Of a DNA stretch of 64,000 nucleotides, positions 1,956 to 39,184 are shown in pieces. The stretch is from a virus: IMG/VR virus record IMGVR_UViG_3300045988_037604; one strand, 5' to 3'. Each line of letters begins with the position of its first letter. Within the stretch, counting starts at the first letter, position 1. The notes beneath the pieces were generated by a model. That model had not been told where the DNA came from, did no database searches, and saw only the letters and a program-made list of their open reading frames with translations. Position numbers and translations under genes: made by a program.

Positions 1956-1970
1956 CCCGCCCGTAGGAAG
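1956..1970 (-). repeat. GC-rich dispersed motif copy (variant CCCGCCCGTAGRA, intergenic)
   Basis: cccgcccgtaggaag begins on the base after the TAA stop at 1953-1955. Confidence 0.9.
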
Positions 1971-2000
1971 TATTGATATTAAATATTAGTTAAACTCTAA

Positions 2001-2048
2001 ATTACTATTGCTTAGATAGGTAGAAATGCTTATCTTTGCAATAGTAAT
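2001..2048 (+). promoter_or_regulatory. inverted repeat enclosing a Bacteroidota-type -7 box upstream of the tRNA
   Basis: Perfect 11-bp inverted repeat attactattgc (2001-2011) / gcaatagtaat (2038-2048). TATCTTTG at 2031-2038 matches TAnnTTTG and lies 18 nt before the tRNA 5' end. TTG lies 20 nt upstream of the box. Confidence 0.45.
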
Positions 2049-2055
2049 ATTTCAA

Positions 2056-2126
2056 TGGAGTATCGTATAATGGTAGTACAGAAGATTTTGGTTCTTCTAG
2101 CATAGGTTCGATTCCTATTACTCCAA
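2056..2126 (+). tRNA. tRNA-Gln (anticodon UUG)
   Basis: Hand-built 71-nt cloverleaf. Acceptor TGGAGTA/TACTCCA; D stem GTAT/GTAC (one G.T); anticodon stem GAAGA/TCTTC with loop TTTTGGT (anticodon TTG at 2088-2090); T arm ATAGG-TTCGATT-CCTAT; discriminator A. CCA is not encoded. Confidence 0.85.
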
Positions 2127-2214
2127 CTAATAGTAAAATTTAAGTTGTTACTTATAATGTTAGGTTAAGTGGTTAAAGATAGGCTGTTTTGAATGGTAAT
2201 TATCCCATGTTCGT

Positions 2215-2249
2215 CCCAAGGTTATCGTGATGATAATCTTGGGATTTTT
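2215..2249 (+). terminator. intrinsic terminator candidate closing the rightward block
   Basis: Stem CCCAAG (2215-2220) / CTTGGG (2238-2243) with a 17-nt loop, followed by ATTTTT. Confidence 0.5.
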
Positions 2250-2466
2250 CATATATGTCGGTTTCATGTCGCTGATAATAATTAAAAAAAAGGTGAAGCT
2301 CAACCTCACGGTCAAACTCCACCAAATAAAAATAGAAAACTAACAAAACAATTTAAATCACAATTTCTCTACAAATTTATATACTAATATGAAATTTAAT
2401 ATTTTAATTTCCTTTCTGAACGATTATTTATATCATGTTTAATAACTAATCATAATCGAATAATAA

Positions 2467-2566
2467 TTGTCATAGAAACAAATTATCAATGTATATTTCA
2501 AATTTTATCTATTATATGTAGTCGGCTAACAATTCATATTGATACAATAATTTGTTTCCATGTCAA
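2467..2566. repeat. long imperfect inverted repeat in the convergent intergenic zone
   Basis: ttgtcatagaaacaaattat (2467-2486) pairs with ataatttgtttccatgtcaa (2547-2566) at 18 of 20 positions. Spacer is 60 nt, with further tatcaat/attgata pairing inside. Confidence 0.7.
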
Positions 2567-2653
2567 TTTAATAGTACGACTGAATGATTATTCAGAAGAT
2601 GAAGTATAAATCCTTAAATGAGAAATTAAATTCTTATATAATATATTATGAAA

Positions 2654-4148: not shown

Positions 4149-4712
4149 TTAATTGTTTTCTCTTTGTCTTTGTTCTAAAATATCTTTTCTAAGTTTTCTA
4201 ATACTACCTCTATAAAGATAATTATGATTTATAACATAAGTATTCTTAGGAAGAATATTATTTGGTATTTTATCACATAGTCTTCCTATAACATCAAGTT
4301 CAACTAATCTTTTAATAGCTTTACTAATATGACTTTTATCACAATTATATTGTTTAGCAATAATAGAAGCATTTAAAGATAAGTGATTAACATTATAAGG
4401 AATATTATCTACGATATATCGTACAACAATACCTACATACTTAGATTCTTCACTAAGTATTGTAACTAGACTATTATCTATAAGCACCTTATCTTCCATA
4501 TAATAAATAGTTTTATTGTACTTATTTCCACTATCATCTTCATCTTTAATTCTAAGACCTTTTACAGATAGAGGATAGCTATAATCAATACTATCTTTAG
4601 CAAGTTTATTAATAACTTTATCATTCATATCTTTATCAATTTTATTAGCAACAATACAAAGATAATAAAAAGTAGCAGATTTTAGCCACATTTTTATAAA
4701 AAATAGCATCAA
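4149..4712 (-). CDS. putative winged-helix DNA-binding protein
   Basis: ORF-track ORF. The more likely start is ATG at 4628 (MNDKVINK...). The segment IAKQYNCDKSHISKAIKRLVELDVIGR looks like an HTH recognition unit. Confidence 0.45.
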   Translation of the reverse strand: MMLFFIKMWLKSATFYYLCIVANKIDKDMNDKVINKLAKDSIDYSYPLSVKGLRIKDEDDSGNKYNKTIYYMEDKVLIDNSLVTILSEESKYVGIVVRYIVDNIPYNVNHLSLNASIIAKQYNCDKSHISKAIKRLVELDVIGRLCDKIPNNILPKNTYVINHNYLYRGSIRKLRKDILEQRQRENN

Positions 4713-31842: not shown

Positions 31843-31854
31843 AACAATAATATC

Positions 31855-35274: not shown

Positions 35275-35347
35275 AATAAGTTCTCCTTATTTATTAGTCA
35301 TATGAACATTTATTTTAATTCCTCGCTCAATATTAGGAATAGAGAGA

Positions 35348-35372
35348 TATAAGTCTTATAAGTCTTATAAGT
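35348..35372. repeat. 9-nt tandem repeat
   Basis: tataagtct x2.8. Confidence 0.8.
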
Positions 35373-35409
35373 ATTTTAACTTCTTCTCTCCAGTTCTTGT
35401 TTATTTTAT

Positions 35410-35468
35410 TTGTTGTCAAATCTTGTTTGTTTTCTTGTTGTCAAGATTTGTTTTCTTCTTGTTGTCAA
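35410..35468 (-). repeat. direct-repeat array (3 x TTGTTGTCAA, 24-25 nt period)
   Basis: Copies at 35410-35419, 35435-35444 and 35459-35468. The minus strand reads TTGACAACAA(GAA). The array lies between the stop of 35519..36103 and the start of 35119..35274. Confidence 0.8.
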
Positions 35469-35518
35469 AGTTCAGAATGAATAGCAAGAGCAGGATTTCT
35501 CTCACTCTTGCATTTTCA

Positions 35519-36103
35519 TTACTCAGCAGTTGCAGCATCAGCTTTCTCAGCAGCTTTCTCAGCAGCTTTGTCAGTAGCAAAATCAAACTTTTTGCCACGA
35601 GCTTGATTAGCAGCTTTGATGATAGCCAACATCTTGGTCATGTCTTTTGGCGCACCAAAGCCAAAATCATTACCAAAGTCAGACAGCACAATATCATTGA
35701 TACGAGTATGAAATGTAACTCCATCAGAAGTCATTTCCTCACCATCAATCTCATTGATGAAAGTCTCGCCGTCTTCAAAACGTTCAACTTTAACATCAAG
35801 AGTTGCGCCAACAAGCAAATTATAATACTCTTCCTGAGTCATGGTTTCCTTGTAGTAACCACGCTCTTTAGGAGCAAGATAATATTGCATCATAGTAGCT
35901 GTCTCGAAGAAGATGATATGTCCGAACTGACGCAATGGCATCTTAATATCATTAGCAAAACCAGCAACAAGTTCACCAGTAGTCTTGTCAAGGCGACGAG
36001 CAGGTATCTGTTCATTGATAGCAAAACTAATCATCTGACGACCTTCATCAGTGAGATACAAACTAACATTAGCAACTGTAACTTTACAATTCAAGCTTTT
36101 CAT
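35519..36103 (-). CDS. hypothetical protein, GC-richer codon usage; first gene of leftward block
   Basis: 194 aa with a C-terminal Ala/Lys/Glu tail (DKAAEKAAEKADAATAE). Flanked on both sides by the repeat arrays. Confidence 0.6.
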   Translation of the reverse strand: MKSLNCKVTVANVSLYLTDEGRQMISFAINEQIPARRLDKTTGELVAGFANDIKMPLRQFGHIIFFETATMMQYYLAPKERGYYKETMTQEEYYNLLVGATLDVKVERFEDGETFINEIDGEEMTSDGVTFHTRINDIVLSDFGNDFGFGAPKDMTKMLAIIKAANQARGKKFDFATDKAAEKAAEKADAATAE

Positions 36104-36184
36104 AATTAAAACATATTAAATTAATGAATAAACAGCATAAGCTGTAGCATGAATCCTTTCCATGCCAAAACTTGTTTCTTTTCT

Positions 36185-36236
36185 TGTTGTTGAAATTGTC
36201 TCTTTCTTGATGTCAAAATCTTGAGTTTGATGACAG
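36185..36236 (-). repeat. direct-repeat array (3 degenerate copies of TTGWTGWYRA, 20-22 nt period)
   Basis: ttgttgttga at 36185-36194, ttgatgtcaa at 36207-36216, ttgatgacag at 36227-36236. Upstream of gene 35519..36103. Confidence 0.65.
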
Positions 36237-36321
36237 GGGATTTCGATACGTACATTAATCGGTGGGGGTCTAACTACATACCCTCCTCCTCACATTTATT
36301 TAATATATTATATAGTATAGC

Positions 36322-36345
36322 CTTTATCTTTATCTTTATCTTTAT
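36322..36345. repeat. (CTTTAT)x4 tandem repeat
   Basis: Four exact units at the start of a ~330-nt low-complexity AT tract. Confidence 0.8.
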
Positions 36346-36640
36346 TTTCATTATTAACTTTAACAATTTAATCTTCAATTTCATCATTCTAATTAATATC
36401 ATTATTATTTTTATCATCATCTTCTTTAATAGATTTATAATTATTATATTGACTTTTATTAATATTAGTATTAGCTTTATCATAAACCTTATTATAACAA
36501 TAATAATCATTATTATATATTATATCTTCATTTTATCTAATTATTATTTCATTAGTATTATCTATATAAATAGTATATATTTTGTCATTATAAGTATTAG
36601 AAGTTCTAGTCGAATCTTAAAGTATTAGATGTCTATAAAT

Positions 36641-36657
36641 CCCGCCCGTAGAAGGAC
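36641..36657 (-). repeat. GC-rich dispersed motif copy (variant, in hub)
   Basis: cccgcccgtagaaggac. Confidence 0.9.
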
Positions 36658-36749
36658 TTGATGATTGATTCTTTACTTTATCTTTATAATTATTTCTTTG
36701 ATTATCTTTATGATTATTAGTATAAGTAGTTTGTTGAGTATTAGAAATG

Positions 36750-36782
36750 AAAAAGGCTACTAGAGAATTAACTCTAGCAGCC
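36750..36782 (-). terminator. intrinsic terminator inside the hub
   Basis: On the minus strand: GGCUGCUAGAG-UUAAUU-CUCUAGUAGCC, 11 bp with one G.U that is an A.C mismatch on the plus strand, followed by UUUUU. Confidence 0.65.
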
Positions 36783-37195
36783 TTTACTTGGTAAGGTCTG
36801 AGGTTTTATGACACTTCATAAAAGTATTTTATTTAGCATTTTATTTTTATAAGACATAATAAGTCTTTTGACTATTATCAAGAAGTATCGAAATTGCTAC
36901 TCAATAATAGATTCGATGTTTATCTGATAAATCTTTATGATTAATATCTTTACGATTAACATCTTGGGTCGCTGTCCACATTAGCAAGAACTATCCACAC
37001 AACTTGTTAGTTAATTGGGAAGAACTAATGCAGTGTCAGGCTTGTAATTAAGATTACTACCACCATCATGTATTTAAACAATCATCTAAGTAGCAAGAGC
37101 TTTACAATCAGCTTCAAGAGAAGTTTCACTATTTGTTACTTCTTCATTACTATTAATGATAATAATTATATTGTCATTAATATCTCTGACCCCAC
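36783..37195 (-). ncRNA. candidate non-coding leftward transcription unit
   Basis: Bounded by a candidate -7 box (37202-37209) and the terminator at 36750-36782. The longest ATG ORF is 26 codons. Contains several local hairpins (ttatga-cact-tcataa, atcgaa...ttcgat, ttagtt...aactaa). Confidence 0.3.
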
Positions 37196-37201
37196 CATCA
37201 G

Positions 37202-37209
37202 CAAATATA
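37202..37209 (-). promoter_or_regulatory. candidate Bacteroidota-type -7 box (leftward)
   Basis: Plus strand caaatata equals TATATTTG(C) on the minus strand. Divergent from the rightward box about 95 bp away. Confidence 0.4.
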
Positions 37210-37303
37210 CATTATATTATATAAGCTACAAGCAATTTACAAATTTTAACATTTAAATTCTATTTTTATTAGCATTAGTCATTGTATTATTAATATAATT
37301 ATC

Positions 37304-37311
37304 TATATTTG
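37304..37311 (+). promoter_or_regulatory. candidate Bacteroidota-type -7 box (rightward)
   Basis: TATATTTGCAGCA, with TTG 19 nt upstream. Shares TAnnTTTGCAGCA with the box at 46694. Confidence 0.5.
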
Positions 37312-37426
37312 CAGCATGAACATGAACACCTATTATATTAGTATAATGATTGGTAGTGTTTTGAAAATATTAAATAACATAAAAGATGATAGTATTAATC
37401 TAGTTATTAATTTTAAATATTGAATT

Positions 37427-37963
37427 ATGGTAAGTTTAAAAGTAAATTATCAAGGTAAGAATTGTGTACTTAATCTTCCTACTATGTTTAATGAAGTAAA
37501 CATGGATTATCTTAAAAGTCTTGTTGCTAATGTAGAAGTTGCTCCTTATTATAGTCTTGTGGCTGTATTATTTAAAGAGCGTCCTACAGCAGTCATTAGT
37601 AGTTTGAAAGAAAATAAAGCAAGTAGTGTTCAAGGAGTTTCAGTTATGATTAAACAAGGTGCTAATAAAGATTCAGAATTTATTAATAATATAAAAGCTG
37701 GAACTTTACTTAATGTTTCAGGTAGTGATTTAGCTTTAGGTTATCATGTAGCTCCTAGATATAATACTCTTAGTGCTAAATTCTTAACTAAATTATGTAT
37801 TGAAAATCCAACACTTTATAAAACTTGTATGGAAGAAGTTAAAGAACCTACTTATTTTGTTGAATTTAAAATTATTCCTAATACTGCTATTCATGCTGCT
37901 ATTAGTAATGATAGTAAACCTGTAATAGATTATTACTTTAGAGAAGAAGTAGAAAGTAATTAA
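37427..37963 (+). CDS. hypothetical protein, first gene of rightward block
   Basis: 178-aa ORF. Confidence 0.6.
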   Translation: MVSLKVNYQGKNCVLNLPTMFNEVNMDYLKSLVANVEVAPYYSLVAVLFKERPTAVISSLKENKASSVQGVSVMIKQGANKDSEFINNIKAGTLLNVSGSDLALGYHVAPRYNTLSAKFLTKLCIENPTLYKTCMEEVKEPTYFVEFKIIPNTAIHAAISNDSKPVIDYYFREEVESN

Positions 37964-38569: not shown

Positions 38570-39184
38570 ATGATTAATGATAAACTAATTATAGATAAAT
38601 TAATTACCATAGATGATAATGGTATGCCTGCTGCTCCTAATATTAGACAACTATTAGATGCTGATGTTAGGAAACTATATGAAAGAGATAAAACTGCTGA
38701 TAAATCTAAATACATTAAAGATTGTATTATAATTTATTATTTAGGTGACCCTAAATCTCCTGCTAAACAAGCTGGTCTTAGTGATAGAGAAGCTCTCAAA
38801 ATGGCTTGTGAACAAGCTGGAGTTAAAGTTGAAGCTCCTGATATGTTAGTACTTAAAATAATAAAAAAGTATTATGAACAAAATATAACTGAAGCTGGAA
38901 GAGTTGTTGAGAATATTCTTAAAGGTCTTCATAATATTAATGTTGCTATTACTGCTATGAATGATATTCTTAATACTAAGTTATCTAAAAAAGAAGAAAT
39001 AGATATTGCTAGTATGGGAGAAATTCTTGCTTTAGTAGATGCTGTTAATAAAAAAGCTGGAGAACTTCCTACTATAATGAAGAAACTTGAAGAAGCTAAA
39101 CAAAATCTTCTATATGAAAAAGAAACTGAAATAGCTAGAGGTGGTAATACTGTTTCTTCTAGTATGGATGCTAGTGAATATTAA
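38570..39184 (+). CDS. hypothetical protein
   Basis: The ORF-track ORF starts at TTG 38543. The first ATG at 38570 (MINDKLIIDK...) avoids overlap with the upstream gene. Confidence 0.55.
   Translation: MINDKLIIDKLITIDDNGMPAAPNIRQLLDADVRKLYERDKTADKSKYIKDCIIIYYLGDPKSPAKQAGLSDREALKMACEQAGVKVEAPDMLVLKIIKKYYEQNITEAGRVVENILKGLHNINVAITAMNDILNTKLSKKEEIDIASMGEILALVDAVNKKAGELPTIMKKLEEAKQNLLYEKETEIARGGNTVSSSMDASEY

Follow-up and report, generated by a model that had tools for sequence, protein, structure and literature searches.

A previously undescribed gene for a folded non-coding RNA of about 450 bases has been found in the largest intergenic gap of a 64,000-nt stretch of viral DNA (the window), which belongs to an Intestiviridae crAss-like gut phage. 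This gap is more than control DNA, since about one third of it is occupied by the structured RNA gene and another part by a clade-wide module located upstream of a gene encoding an SSB-like protein. As a whole, the gap is best read, with a probability of roughly 60%, as a composite non-coding control region placed at a divergent junction and made up of four units: the RNA gene, a rightward promoter, the module upstream of the SSB-like gene and an AT tract.

Setting and conservation of the gap

The gap extends over 1323 nt (36104-37426). The median gap in the window is 13 nt and the runner-up 698 nt, in agreement with an earlier sequence-only reading that had described a hub of 1.3 kb amid tightly packed genes. 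Its description as ORF-free needs a qualification: two mechanical open reading frames of 135 aa (+ strand) and 78 aa (- strand) are present in the low-complexity tract, and neither of them is conserved. A replication block (DNA polymerase, Dda-like helicase and ligase) lies leftward of the gap and a late block (terminase, portal and capsid) rightward of it, and the phage encodes a family A DNA polymerase.

The comparison of the gap with related genomes, which the sequence-only reading had proposed as a check, revealed several conserved blocks, namely the promoter boxes, the terminator, the RNA structure and a GC-rich element. The non-coding DNA at 36570-37430 is about 75-77% identical to that of the three closest relatives (BLAST), whereas the neighbouring 178-aa protein is merely 47-57% identical to their versions. 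No near-identical DNA was found in the phage collection, in which the sole match was cr8_1 (70% over 250 nt), and a first scan for related loci seeded with the 178-aa protein yielded no loci. The earlier proposal of a replication origin and/or an early-transcription control region has held in its control half, with divergent boxes and a terminator that are conserved; its origin half is weighed below as an alternative. The features located in the gap and next to it are presented in Table 1.

Table 1. Features of the gap and of the adjoining leftward genes. Positions are those of the window.
Feature	Position	Strand	Description and evidence
Three tandem repeats CTTGTTGTCAA	35395-35469		Period 25; TRF score 93, pattern search; same kind as the TTTCTTGWTGTYRAAA repeats
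SSB-like gene	35519-36103	-	First leftward gene; 194-aa SSB-like OB-fold protein with low-complexity C-terminal tail; AlphaFold2, Foldseek
Proximal upstream region of the SSB-like gene	36132-36178	-	Motif CAAGTTTTGGCA..GAAGGA and leader hairpin (36145-36132)
Degenerate direct repeats TTTCTTGWTGTYRAAA	36162-36232		Period about 23; flanked by the GC element and the SSB-like gene; TRF, pattern search
Conserved 75-nt GC element	36233-36305		GAC(A/G)GGGG, about 24 nt, GGGGGT, about 18 nt, CTCnCnCTCTCACA, then TTATA
AT tract	36294-36593		13% GC, nearly G-less on the + strand; lowest GC, least stable duplex, TRF
Dispersed GC motif copy	36641-36655	-	CCCCCCCGTAGAAGG on the + strand
Structured non-coding RNA gene	36745-37197	-	About 450 nt, body and terminator; RNAalifold, covariation, promoter, terminator
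Intrinsic terminator of the RNA	36752-36785	-	14-bp stem, 6-nt loop, then UUUUUCAUUU
Closing helix of the RNA	37197-37188 with 36798-36789	-	Joins the 5' and 3' ends
Internal helices of the RNA (including)	37184-37149, 37096-37054, 37018-36995, 36879-36856	-	Structure model
Promoter -7 box TATATTTG, RNA gene	37202-37209	-	Invariant in 13 of 13 copies
Promoter -7 box TATATTTG(CAGCA), rightward operon	37304-37311	+	Conserved in relatives including cr8_1
Putative 5' leader, rightward operon	37312-37426	+	About 110 nt; downstream of the 37304 box

The structured RNA gene

The RNA gene was absent from the list of elements given in the sequence-only reading. The RNAalifold analysis of six sequences produced 97 pairs, 29 of them compensatory, and the analysis of 11 sequences, which represent about four allele groups, produced 86 pairs. 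When pairs were counted over the 11 related genomes, 96.9% of the cells were paired and 27 pairs had changed on both sides, compared with 1-7 covarying pairs and 30-57% of paired cells in slid controls of the same set, some of the covariation measures being inflated because the structure had been built from the alignment on which it was tested. The counts from the six-sequence set agree with these values, and none of 500 shuffles reached the observed pairing score. In the closing helix, GC, CG, AU and UA variants are found at the same positions among the relatives. The conservation of base pairs by compensatory change thus goes beyond the controls, as is generic for structured RNAs. The single-sequence fold has an energy of -117.9 kcal/mol (z = -5.2), and G.U pairs that never vary identify the - strand as the RNA strand. 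The gene has its own promoter and terminator and no conserved ORF, with stops in all frames of every relative.

The transcript would start near 37197. From the promoter at 37209-37202, the host RNA polymerase would make an abundant and stable leftward RNA of about 450 nt, which would act in trans, as scaffold or decoy, and not as mRNA. This RNA is unlikely to be a primer, because the terminator ends it before the AT tract.

No family of Rfam 15 (including GOLLD, ROOL, 6S, group I/II introns, tmRNA and RNase P) matched the RNA at the gathering threshold, and a search of 35300-37500 with relaxed filters gave best E-values of 1.2-8.9, far below the thresholds in score. Over the whole window, the only Rfam match at the gathering threshold was a tRNA-Gln at 2056-2126. 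A search of the window with filters off detected no paralogues of the RNA, and a search for its antisense targets in the window yielded only chance matches in AT-rich DNA. The model of the RNA 3' module had no significant match in cr8_1, prototypic crAssphage, crAss002, phi14:2 or remoter relatives, and a weak one in the related locus L028 (E = 0.39), at the right place and strand. Negatives obtained with the default filters of cmsearch carry little weight, because under these conditions the window's own copy was missed. According to these sequence searches, the RNA family appears to be confined to a clade at about genus level. No function-defining motif was found in the RNA, and a literature search on non-coding RNAs of crAss-like phages returned nothing relevant.

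The centre of the RNA is mosaic, with a central domain that differs between otherwise similar strains and that in some strains is replaced by a different cassette. These cassette variants retain the promoter, the closing stem, the 3' module and the terminator. The 149-aa protein encoded by the alternative cassette matched no Pfam or PHROG family. The variable centre and the cassette swaps suggest an accessory and quickly evolving function. A more specific proposal, to which we give low odds, is that the host polymerase makes a fast-diversifying RNA at the very start of infection, which acts in trans either by capturing a host factor as a scaffold or by countering a host defence as decoy or sponge, its conserved frame (closing helix, 3' module and terminator) carrying an exchangeable specificity domain, and that the GC element is a new control or initiation site read by a protein. 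Such an exchangeable domain would explain the mosaic alleles and the swaps of whole cassettes between near-identical strains.

Promoter boxes, terminator and dispersed GC motif

Primary-sigma promoters of Bacteroidetes have a -7 element TAnnTTTG and a -33 element TTTG located about 19-21 nt upstream of it. The TATATTTG sequences at 37202-37209 (-) and 37304-37311 (+) fit this -7 consensus. The -33 element is a poor match at the + box (ATTG at about 20 nt) and is badly spaced at the - box, where TTTG is found only at about 30 nt. Both of the divergent promoter-like boxes that had been noticed at 37202 and 37304 are indeed TATATTTG (TAnnTTTG), they are conserved in relatives and they recur before other genes. 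The extended box is present in sense orientation in at least eight intergenic sites, including one before a tRNA, with positions 2031, 12594, 19772, 31835, 46694, 56100 and 58706 in this orientation.

The rightward operon begins with the 178-aa gene at 37427, and the box at 37304 would drive this late-side operon through a leader of about 110 nt. The frame of a 35-aa ORF at 37316-37423 is not conserved and is broken by indels in alignment A1.

The strand-specific terminator previously placed at 36750-36782 was recovered as a 14-bp stem at 36785-36752 with a T-tail on the - strand. The stem contains 6 G-C pairs and is directly followed on this strand by TTTTTCATTT, as in intrinsic terminators. 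It is 100% identical in four relatives, and in the variant terminator of L064 the loop is kept and the stem changes are compensatory. The GC-rich motif reported at 36641 is a dispersed one, with 14 copies in the window (0.11 expected), and its complementary strand can form CCUUC[UACG]GGGGG. The copy in the gap is always located about 55-90 nt downstream of the RNA terminator, a place that is also kept in the L058 and L064 variants.

The SSB-like gene and its upstream module

The AlphaFold2 model of the 194-aa protein has a pLDDT of 76. Foldseek matches of this model in the PDB were almost all bacterial SSBs (E = 1e-4, probability up to 1.0), with TM values of only 0.24-0.41, and those in BFVD were crAss-like homologues, one of them named SSB. 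The protein has no Pfam or PHROG match; more than 80 sequence clusters of it are available.

The module upstream of this gene (36132-36305) consists of the leader hairpin, the direct repeats and the 75-nt GC element. By iterated nhmmer searches the GC element has been located in 33 loci including the window (31 distinct sequences), once in each and at the same place and orientation. Its spacing is fixed and its two G-runs are invariant (alignment A2). The element was not found in prototypic crAssphage or phi14:2, and crAss002 contains a partial look-alike only (E = 0.5). RNAalifold gave no consensus RNA structure for it on either strand. The GGGGGU/ACCCUC hairpin suggested from the sequence does exist in the window; it shows no covariation, and ACCCTC changes to AGGCTC or AGGTTC in relatives while the G-run stays invariant. 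Conserved spacing without conserved pairing suggests that a protein recognises the element as DNA.

The direct repeats, also noticed before, are weak when taken alone (2.4 copies with 71% match by TRF; 4 hits in the pattern search, 1.6 being expected) but nearly invariant in the closest relatives, L003 and L004. Two repeat units of about 20 nt occupy the same place upstream of the SSB-like gene in relatives, and in 7 of 31 relatives the repeat stretch contains a GAA-triloop hairpin whose stem is quite different in sequence. Closer to the gene, the motif CAAGTTTTGGCA..GAAGGA is conserved across the clade and is a candidate -7 box plus transcript start. The leader hairpin is present in every lineage, each time with a different sequence, and in L004 its CAGC/GCTG is compensatorily changed to TAGC/GCTA; a terminator scan flagged this hairpin as terminator-like. 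The whole module likely would control the expression of the SSB-like gene and of early leftward genes. The three tandem copies at 35395-35469, which are better ones, lie outside the gap, right between the end of the SSB-like gene and the next leftward gene.

The AT tract and alternative explanations of the gap

The (CTTTAT)x4 and the low-complexity AT tract described from the sequence were both verified, the former being exact at 36322-36345 and the latter having, with 13.3% (36294-36593), a lower GC content than any other 300-nt window in the 64 kb. Of all 150-nt duplexes in the 64 kb, the one of lowest stability is also located here (36433-36582), with -142 kcal/mol against a mean of -173 (sd 8.9), about 3.5 sd away, so the tract has the low stability of an AT-rich unwinding element. 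Its GC skew is -0.73 to -0.85. Both its length and its sequence vary even in the closest relatives, with large indels in alignment A1, and several public contigs break inside it. Within the composite region, the tract would be an easily melted spacer of variable length between the RNA gene and the module upstream of the SSB-like gene.

It is conceivable, although we are inclined to doubt it, that the gap is a replication origin, in which the 13% GC tract unwinds, while the repeats and the GC element beside it are bound by an initiator or mark the change from RNA to DNA synthesis; a purine-rich leftward read-through RNA from the 37209 promoter could form an R-loop and prime the family A polymerase. 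Such an origin could co-exist with the composite control region. The low stability and GC content of the tract in the 64 kb favour an origin, and so do the extreme strand asymmetry (the leftward RNA is nearly C-less and purine-rich), a strong promoter pointing at the tract, the two invariant G-runs at fixed spacing and the direct repeats on its far side, the adjoining SSB-like gene, the family A polymerase of the phage, and the prediction, in a preprint, of origins near the start of the forward-strand genes of prototypic crAssphage (PMC10983915). The cumulative GC skew, which the sequence-only reading had proposed to compute, has its minimum in the gap (36-37 kb), but the skew reverses precisely where the genes change direction and therefore says nothing independent on the origin. 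The perfectly conserved terminator between the promoter and the AT tract argues against an origin, and DnaA boxes (TTATCCACA, at most one mismatch) are about as frequent in the window as expected (23 versus 21.7), a single one being located in the gap. The number of repeats is low and their sequence degenerate (period 23; 2.4 copies, 71% match). The adjoining gene is SSB-like and not an initiator gene, with no similarity of the 194-aa protein to RepL, and the only RepL-like winged-helix ORF (4149-4712) is 32 kb away. Neither the sequence nor the length of the tract is conserved, though an unwinding element may tolerate this. A different function for part of the same DNA, which seems improbable to us, is that the GC element and the repeats belong to the 5' leader of the SSB mRNA and are a translational operator at which the SSB-like protein would bind to control its own synthesis. 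In T4 gene 32, cooperative binding of the protein is nucleated at a structured 5' element and extends to the start codon over a leader that lacks structure and is rich in repeats. The likeness lies in the long A-rich leader with repeats that follows a GC-rich element ahead of an SSB-like gene: the order on the - strand is the GC-rich element, about 100 nt of A-rich sequence with CAAGAAA-type repeats, the hairpin and the AUG, and this arrangement is kept in all relatives examined despite greatly differing protein sequences. Unlike for the T4 operator, no conserved pseudoknot, helix or other pairing, nested or otherwise, was found for the GC element, its - strand folds are weaker than those of the + strand, and the proteins are not homologous. 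Moreover, a candidate -7 box AAGTTTTG at 36176-36169, predicted from the sequence, would start the mRNA downstream of the element and so leave it outside the transcript.

Two further explanations concern the nature of the gap itself, and both have very little probability. One of them, which we consider very unlikely, is that the gap holds the physical ends of the packaged genome, with terminal repeats or a pac site. Among the related contigs of full length (85-96 kb, about 21 in number), four end in the equivalent gap, about 0.3 being expected, and five others within 3 kb to the left of it, and several shorter contigs end in it too; moreover, terminal repeats have been reported for crAss001 and, as a possibility, for prototypic crAssphage (PMC8042965, PMC10983915). 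However, the contig ends are scattered and mostly fall in low-complexity AT sequence, assemblies can be broken by nothing more than the hypervariability between strains and a GC content of 13%, and pac-type headful packaging with permuted ends has been reported for crAss002, a cultured member of the Intestiviridae (PMC8042965). The contig ends in the gap are assembly breaks and not genome termini. In one contig that was checked for a true terminal repeat, a 55-nt overlap was found, which is an assembly k-mer from a circular graph. That the gap is instead a decayed or recoded coding region, either a pseudogene or one with a reassigned stop codon, is scarcely credible. One frame of the - strand is kept in four relatives over 36980-37210, with indels in multiples of three and with peptide-like stretches in common (SNEGVTNSETSLEAD, DGG..DTA), the AT tract is biased to purines on its - strand in the way that coding strands of this genome are, and real ORFs of 204 aa and 149 aa are found in the same gap of cr8_1 and some strains. 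The kept frame is explained by a covarying hairpin, in whose loop the multiple-of-three indels are located; in addition, the in-frame stops mix TAA and TAG and are present in all relatives, there is no conserved start codon, long genes elsewhere in the window are intact under the standard code, and substitutions are compensatory for RNA pairing instead of concentrated at third codon positions. Stop-codon recoding and a pseudogene were rejected after six-frame translation, which gave a long - frame with mixed TAA and TAG stops. A hidden homologue of cr8_1 gp55 (204 aa) in the gap was also discarded, as no tblastn match was obtained.

Significance and relation to known systems

The crAss-like phages rank with the most abundant gut viruses of humans, and their exact mode of replication is called unknown in a review (PMC10136315). 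A term search found no mention of non-coding regions or origins in that review or in a metagenomic survey (PMC7886860). A seemingly empty gap of 1.3 kb has here been resolved into defined parts: an RNA gene running from promoter to terminator, a 75-nt element and the most meltable DNA in the window. The variation in alleles and cassettes marks a hotspot of strain differences that matters for strain typing and for assembly, since public contigs break there. Should the RNA target host factors or defences, or should the element prove to be the origin, a gap in the biology of these phages would be filled.

GOLLD and ROOL are non-coding RNAs of phages and prophages, several hundred nucleotides long, with many covarying helices and no assigned function. 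The RNA described here is likewise phage-borne, non-coding and several hundred nucleotides long, with many helices supported by covariation. It has no Rfam match, GOLLD and ROOL included, at the gathering threshold or up to E = 10; in contrast to them, it is smaller, it is found in a narrow clade and its centre is mosaic.

Transcription-primed origins include the primary origin of T7, ColE1 RNA II and the mitochondrial conserved sequence blocks. The gap resembles them in a promoter directed into a meltable AT tract, a purine-rich RNA strand, G-runs on the far side and a family A polymerase; the likeness is in layout only, and unlike in those systems the way from the promoter to the tract is barred by a strong, conserved terminator.

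Highly abundant and stable intergenic RNAs, present from the earliest time point and unexplained, are described for phi14:2, a crAss-like Cellulophaga phage, in the region g004-g005-g006 (Drobysheva et al., preprint 10.1101/2020.03.07.982082). The RNA of the window is a candidate counterpart of these RNAs. In phi14:2, too, more than 1 kb of DNA next to small early genes is free of ORFs (NC_021806, 2905-4601). That region is matched neither by the GC-element HMM nor by the RNA model R1, and phi14:2 belongs to the Steigviridae, not to the Intestiviridae as the phage of the window. The available part of that report gives expression and no structure or covariation, whereas here the structure has been obtained from sequence and transcription is predicted.

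In prototypic crAssphage (Carjivirus communis), origins have been placed near repL and directly upstream of it by OriFinder prediction and coverage (Schmidtke et al., PMC10983915). Unlike in the window, the first leftward gene is RepL instead of an SSB-like gene, the gap is of about 500 nt, and the GC element and the RNA both went undetected. The genome position is the same, directly upstream of homologues of the 178-aa and 213-aa genes (KP06_gp86 and gp84), and the two gaps are similar in having direct repeats next to the leftward gene that comes first, together with AT-rich DNA, a block rich in GC and a TAnnTTTG box. In the BK010471 sequence, repL is found at the strand switch, beside two 28-nt direct repeats and AT-rich DNA.

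Genomic setting of the gap

The window, with a GC content of 27%, carries a leftward block (to 36103) with family A DNA polymerase, Dda-like helicase and ligase genes, and a rightward block (from 37427) with genes for a PD-(D/E)XK-type exonuclease, terminase, portal and major capsid protein, which match crAss-like phage families. In the phage collection, DNA similarity was limited to the uncultured phage cr8_1 (Intestiviridae, Obtuvirinae; 70% over 250 nt), whose terminase is 80% identical to that of the window; those of Carjivirus communis and crAss002 reach 53-55%. The sequence-only reading had singled out the gap where the two gene blocks diverge as exceptional, and it was correct because, in a simple gene call of the window, the stretch 36104-37426 (1323 nt) is the largest intergenic one, the median being 13 nt. 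It had also called this gap ORF-free; mechanical ORFs of 135 aa (+) and 78 aa (−) do exist, but they consist of low-complexity sequence that is not conserved. Although largely right, that reading missed the main content of the gap, a structured, rapidly varying RNA gene together with an element found clade-wide ahead of the SSB-like gene. A probability of about 0.6 is assigned to the overall reading of the gap given here.

A total of 45 related loci (L0xx handles, on other phage contigs) were retrieved from viral contigs with the conserved rightward protein 38600-39184, and 14 further loci were reached through homologues of the 194-aa leftward neighbour. Exact-pattern scans for the terminator hairpin gave nothing further among viral contigs and three new loci in metagenome contigs (L051, L052, L053). 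By BLAST, the gap is about 75-77% identical to the three closest genomes, whereas the adjacent 178-aa protein shares only 47-57% identity with the same genomes, so that the non-coding DNA 36570-37430 is under constraint.

Features of the gap, of the rest of the window and of related loci
Feature	Position	Strand	Remarks
Second-largest gap	1956-2653		698 nt; convergent end of both gene blocks
tRNA-Gln(TTG)	2056-2127		within the gap 1956-2653; promoter box TATCTTTGcaatag ahead at 2031-2038
187-aa ORF	4149-4712	−	winged helix; Pfam HTH_27, 22.6 bits (cut-off 22.2)
Three tandem 25-nt repeats (…CTTGTTGTCAA…)	35395-35469		separate the SSB-like gene from the small leftward gene that follows
Small hairpin	36132-36145		upstream of the SSB-like gene; compensatory change in L004
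Conserved motif GTCCTTCTATTGCCAAAACTTG			form in most relatives; between small hairpin and direct repeat units
Terminator hairpin	36785-36752	−	14-bp stem and U-tail
Promoter box TATATTTG	37209-37202	−	just ahead of the RNA gene; about 450 nt before the terminator
Rightward promoter box TATATTTGCAGCA	37304	+	conserved out to cr8_1
Dispersed 15-nt motif CCCCCCCGTAGAAGR	12676, 15926, 20689, 23846, 31854, 36641, 37979, 41347, 47028, 52583, 53516, 58158, 62559, 63069		
RNA allele groups	window/L003/L051; L004/L002/L062/L069; L053/L057/L059/L068		
GAA-triloop hairpins	16-86 nt left of the first G-run		L002, L007, L014, L024, L030, L034, L045
28-nt direct repeats cgaaatctattccatgtatggtataaat	L055 940-1100 (Carjivirus communis BK010471)		about 50 nt apart, abutting the repL start
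crAss002 junction	L072 5282-6031 and L071 1-366		MN917146 92281-93030 and 1-366

A probable gene for a structured RNA

The box and the terminator hairpin of the RNA gene (37197-36745, −) are invariant or nearly so across all copies, and between them every reading frame contains stops in every relative. A seemingly kept protein-coding frame, with indels in threes, was considered and rejected: these indels fall within a hairpin loop, and the stem of that hairpin covaries. RNAalifold predicted 97 pairs from 6 sequences, 29 having changed on both sides in a compensatory way, and 86 pairs from 11 sequences, which represent about four allele groups. In the larger alignment, from which the structure was also derived, 96.9% of cells were paired and 27 pairs had changed on both sides, against 30-57% and 1-7 pairs in controls slid by 1-3 columns; none of 500 column shuffles reached the observed covariation, and pair counting on the 6-sequence set gave the same picture. 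The most telling helix joins the RNA ends (37197-37188 with 36798-36789), and a given position in it can hold GC, CG, AU or UA depending on the allele group; this helix is also present in the minimum-energy fold of the single sequence (−117.9 kcal/mol, z = −5.2 against dinucleotide shuffles). The minus strand is the RNA strand, because its invariant G.U pairs, if read from the opposite strand, would become C.A mismatches. The RNA is very probably real and structured. No Rfam family matched it.

The central domain of the RNA is mosaic, with at least three alignable allele groups, and the flanks of the same genomes are far more alike. In L064-L066, a variant of about 400 nt keeps the promoter, a closing stem and the terminator loop, with compensatory changes in the terminator stem. 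Another cassette replaces the segment 37287-36664 in five loci (L058, L060, L061, L067 and L070). Its 149-aa ORF runs along the opposite strand and matches no Pfam or PHROG family; it also includes an RNA-like stretch, richer in GC, where the 3' module (GATAATAGTCwAAAGACTwATTATGTC) is retained together with a terminator. The flanks of this cassette (L058 2369-2818; also L060, L067 and L070) are 86-94% identical. A 204-aa ORF (gp55) occupies the equivalent place in cr8_1, and in L069 a 149-aa ORF is called within the AT tract.

A covariance model of the 3' module recovered the cassette variants and L045, with no significant match in cr8_1, Carjivirus, crAss002, phi14:2 or more distant loci; the RNA family therefore seems confined to a narrow clade. 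It lies in a hotspot of cassette exchange. Default-filter negatives in AT-rich sequence need caution, since cmsearch with default filters missed the window's own 3' module (36746-36895), which scored 124.8 bits with filters off. A weak match in the distant relative L028 (4824-4976, −; 24.6 bits, E = 0.39), on the expected strand and at the gap position, may be a diverged counterpart. The window holds one copy of the RNA, and no antisense target was found within it.

Downstream of the rightward promoter box, the frame of a 35-aa ORF is not kept among relatives, so 37312-37426 is probably a leader. The extended box also lies, in sense orientation, ahead of other genes and of the tRNA-Gln, where it is the same box as in the gap.

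The SSB-like gene and its upstream module

The 194-aa protein had no match in Pfam or PHROG. Its AlphaFold2 model (pLDDT 76) matched PDB entries of bacterial SSBs (E = 1e-4 and probability up to 1.0, at low TM) and crAss-like proteins in BFVD, one annotated as SSB, and the protein is considered SSB-like with moderate confidence. Upstream of its gene, along the plus strand, are a hairpin, a conserved motif, direct repeat units and a 75-nt GC element. The gene is bracketed by repeats, since those at 35395-35469 are of the same kind as the gap repeats 36162-36232, in better copies.

With iterated nhmmer, the GC element was located in 33 loci, the window among them, in one constant orientation and, in most of them, 82-230 nt from the first leftward ORF. 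The proposed hairpin pairing its second G-run did not hold, the partner segment becoming non-complementary in relatives, and RNAalifold predicted zero pairs on either strand. The G-runs and their spacing are invariant, and this fixed spacing without pairing points to recognition by a protein, as DNA or as unstructured nucleic acid.

Perfect GAA-triloop hairpins of 6-11 bp, with quite different stem sequences, are present in the upstream stretch of 7 of 31 relatives and absent from the window. This pattern recalls the hairpin promoters of the virion polymerase of phage N4. TTTA or TTTT loops take the place of the triloop in L013, L017 and L026.

Possible replication origin and genome termini

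The AT tract (36294-36593; 13.3% GC) is the GC minimum of the window and includes the exact (CTTTAT)x4 that had been described. Its plus strand is nearly devoid of G (skew down to −0.85), and its length and sequence differ largely even between closest relatives. The sequence-only reading had proposed a replication origin and/or transcription control in the gap; the latter is supported and the former unproven. An origin would be compatible with the RNA gene and the clade-wide element and would agree with the least stable duplex of the window in the AT tract, the flanking repeats and G-runs, a promoter aimed at the tract, the purine-rich leftward RNA expected and the adjoining SSB-like gene. Also in its favour is the layout of prototypic crAssphage, where origins near repL have been predicted in a preprint (PMC10983915): beside repL, the strand switch of BK010471 (L055) shows two 28-nt direct repeats, then AT-rich DNA and a GC-rich inverted repeat. 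However, the skew minimum, suggested earlier as a check, does fall in the gap but at the very point where gene direction changes, a conserved terminator precedes the AT tract, DnaA boxes are at chance level and the repeats are few and degenerate. Moreover, the only RepL-like winged-helix ORF, a possible replication initiator that tblastn weakly matched to crAssphage RepL (E = 0.002), is 32 kb away. An origin in the gap is considered possible, at a fairly low probability.

Several public contigs begin or end inside the AT tract, and more contig ends than expected fall within or close to the gap (inside it for 4 of about 21 full-length contigs), as physical genome termini would produce. Nevertheless, the ends are scattered, mostly in low-complexity sequence, the one contig tested had only a 55-nt k-mer overlap, and headful packaging has been reported for the cultured crAss002, of the same family (PMC8042965). 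A simpler account is that hypervariability and the extreme AT content break the assemblies. A perfect AT-rich palindrome of about 100 nt that opens the 93 kb contig of L023 (1-100), directly upstream of the 178-aa gene homologue, is probably an assembly or amplification artefact.

Comparison with known systems and a dispersed motif

The nearest precedent for the gap RNA is phi14:2: long intergenic regions by early genes give abundant, stable non-coding RNAs of unassigned function, and early promoters have no detectable common motif (10.1101/2020.03.07.982082). The phi14:2 record contains a 1.7 kb stretch without ORFs. The junction of crAss002 is likewise ORF-free (about 1.1 kb), with a pair of G-runs, the series GACGGGGG, 22 nt, GGGGGC, and a direct repeat of about 40 nt (AAAATATACTCACGAAAAATAT…) whose two copies are spaced by 170 nt; this cultured phage is a convenient experimental system. 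With the terms searched, no mention of non-coding regions or origins was found in a Crassvirales review (PMC10136315) or a large metagenomic survey (PMC7886860). The RNA family and the conserved GC element are therefore regarded as new, the former within the known kind of large structured phage RNAs.

The 15-nt motif CCCCCCCGTAGAAGR has 14 copies in the window (0.11 expected), on both strands and in genic and intergenic DNA. The complementary strand can fold into CCUUC[UACG]GGGGG, a hairpin whose loop is of the UNCG type, and a compensatory change is present in the 37979 copy; those at 31854 and 12676 are just upstream of a TAnnTTTG box. A related sequence, CTCCCCGTGGAGGATG, is an inverted repeat in the prototypic crAssphage junction (L055, about 1180-1330).
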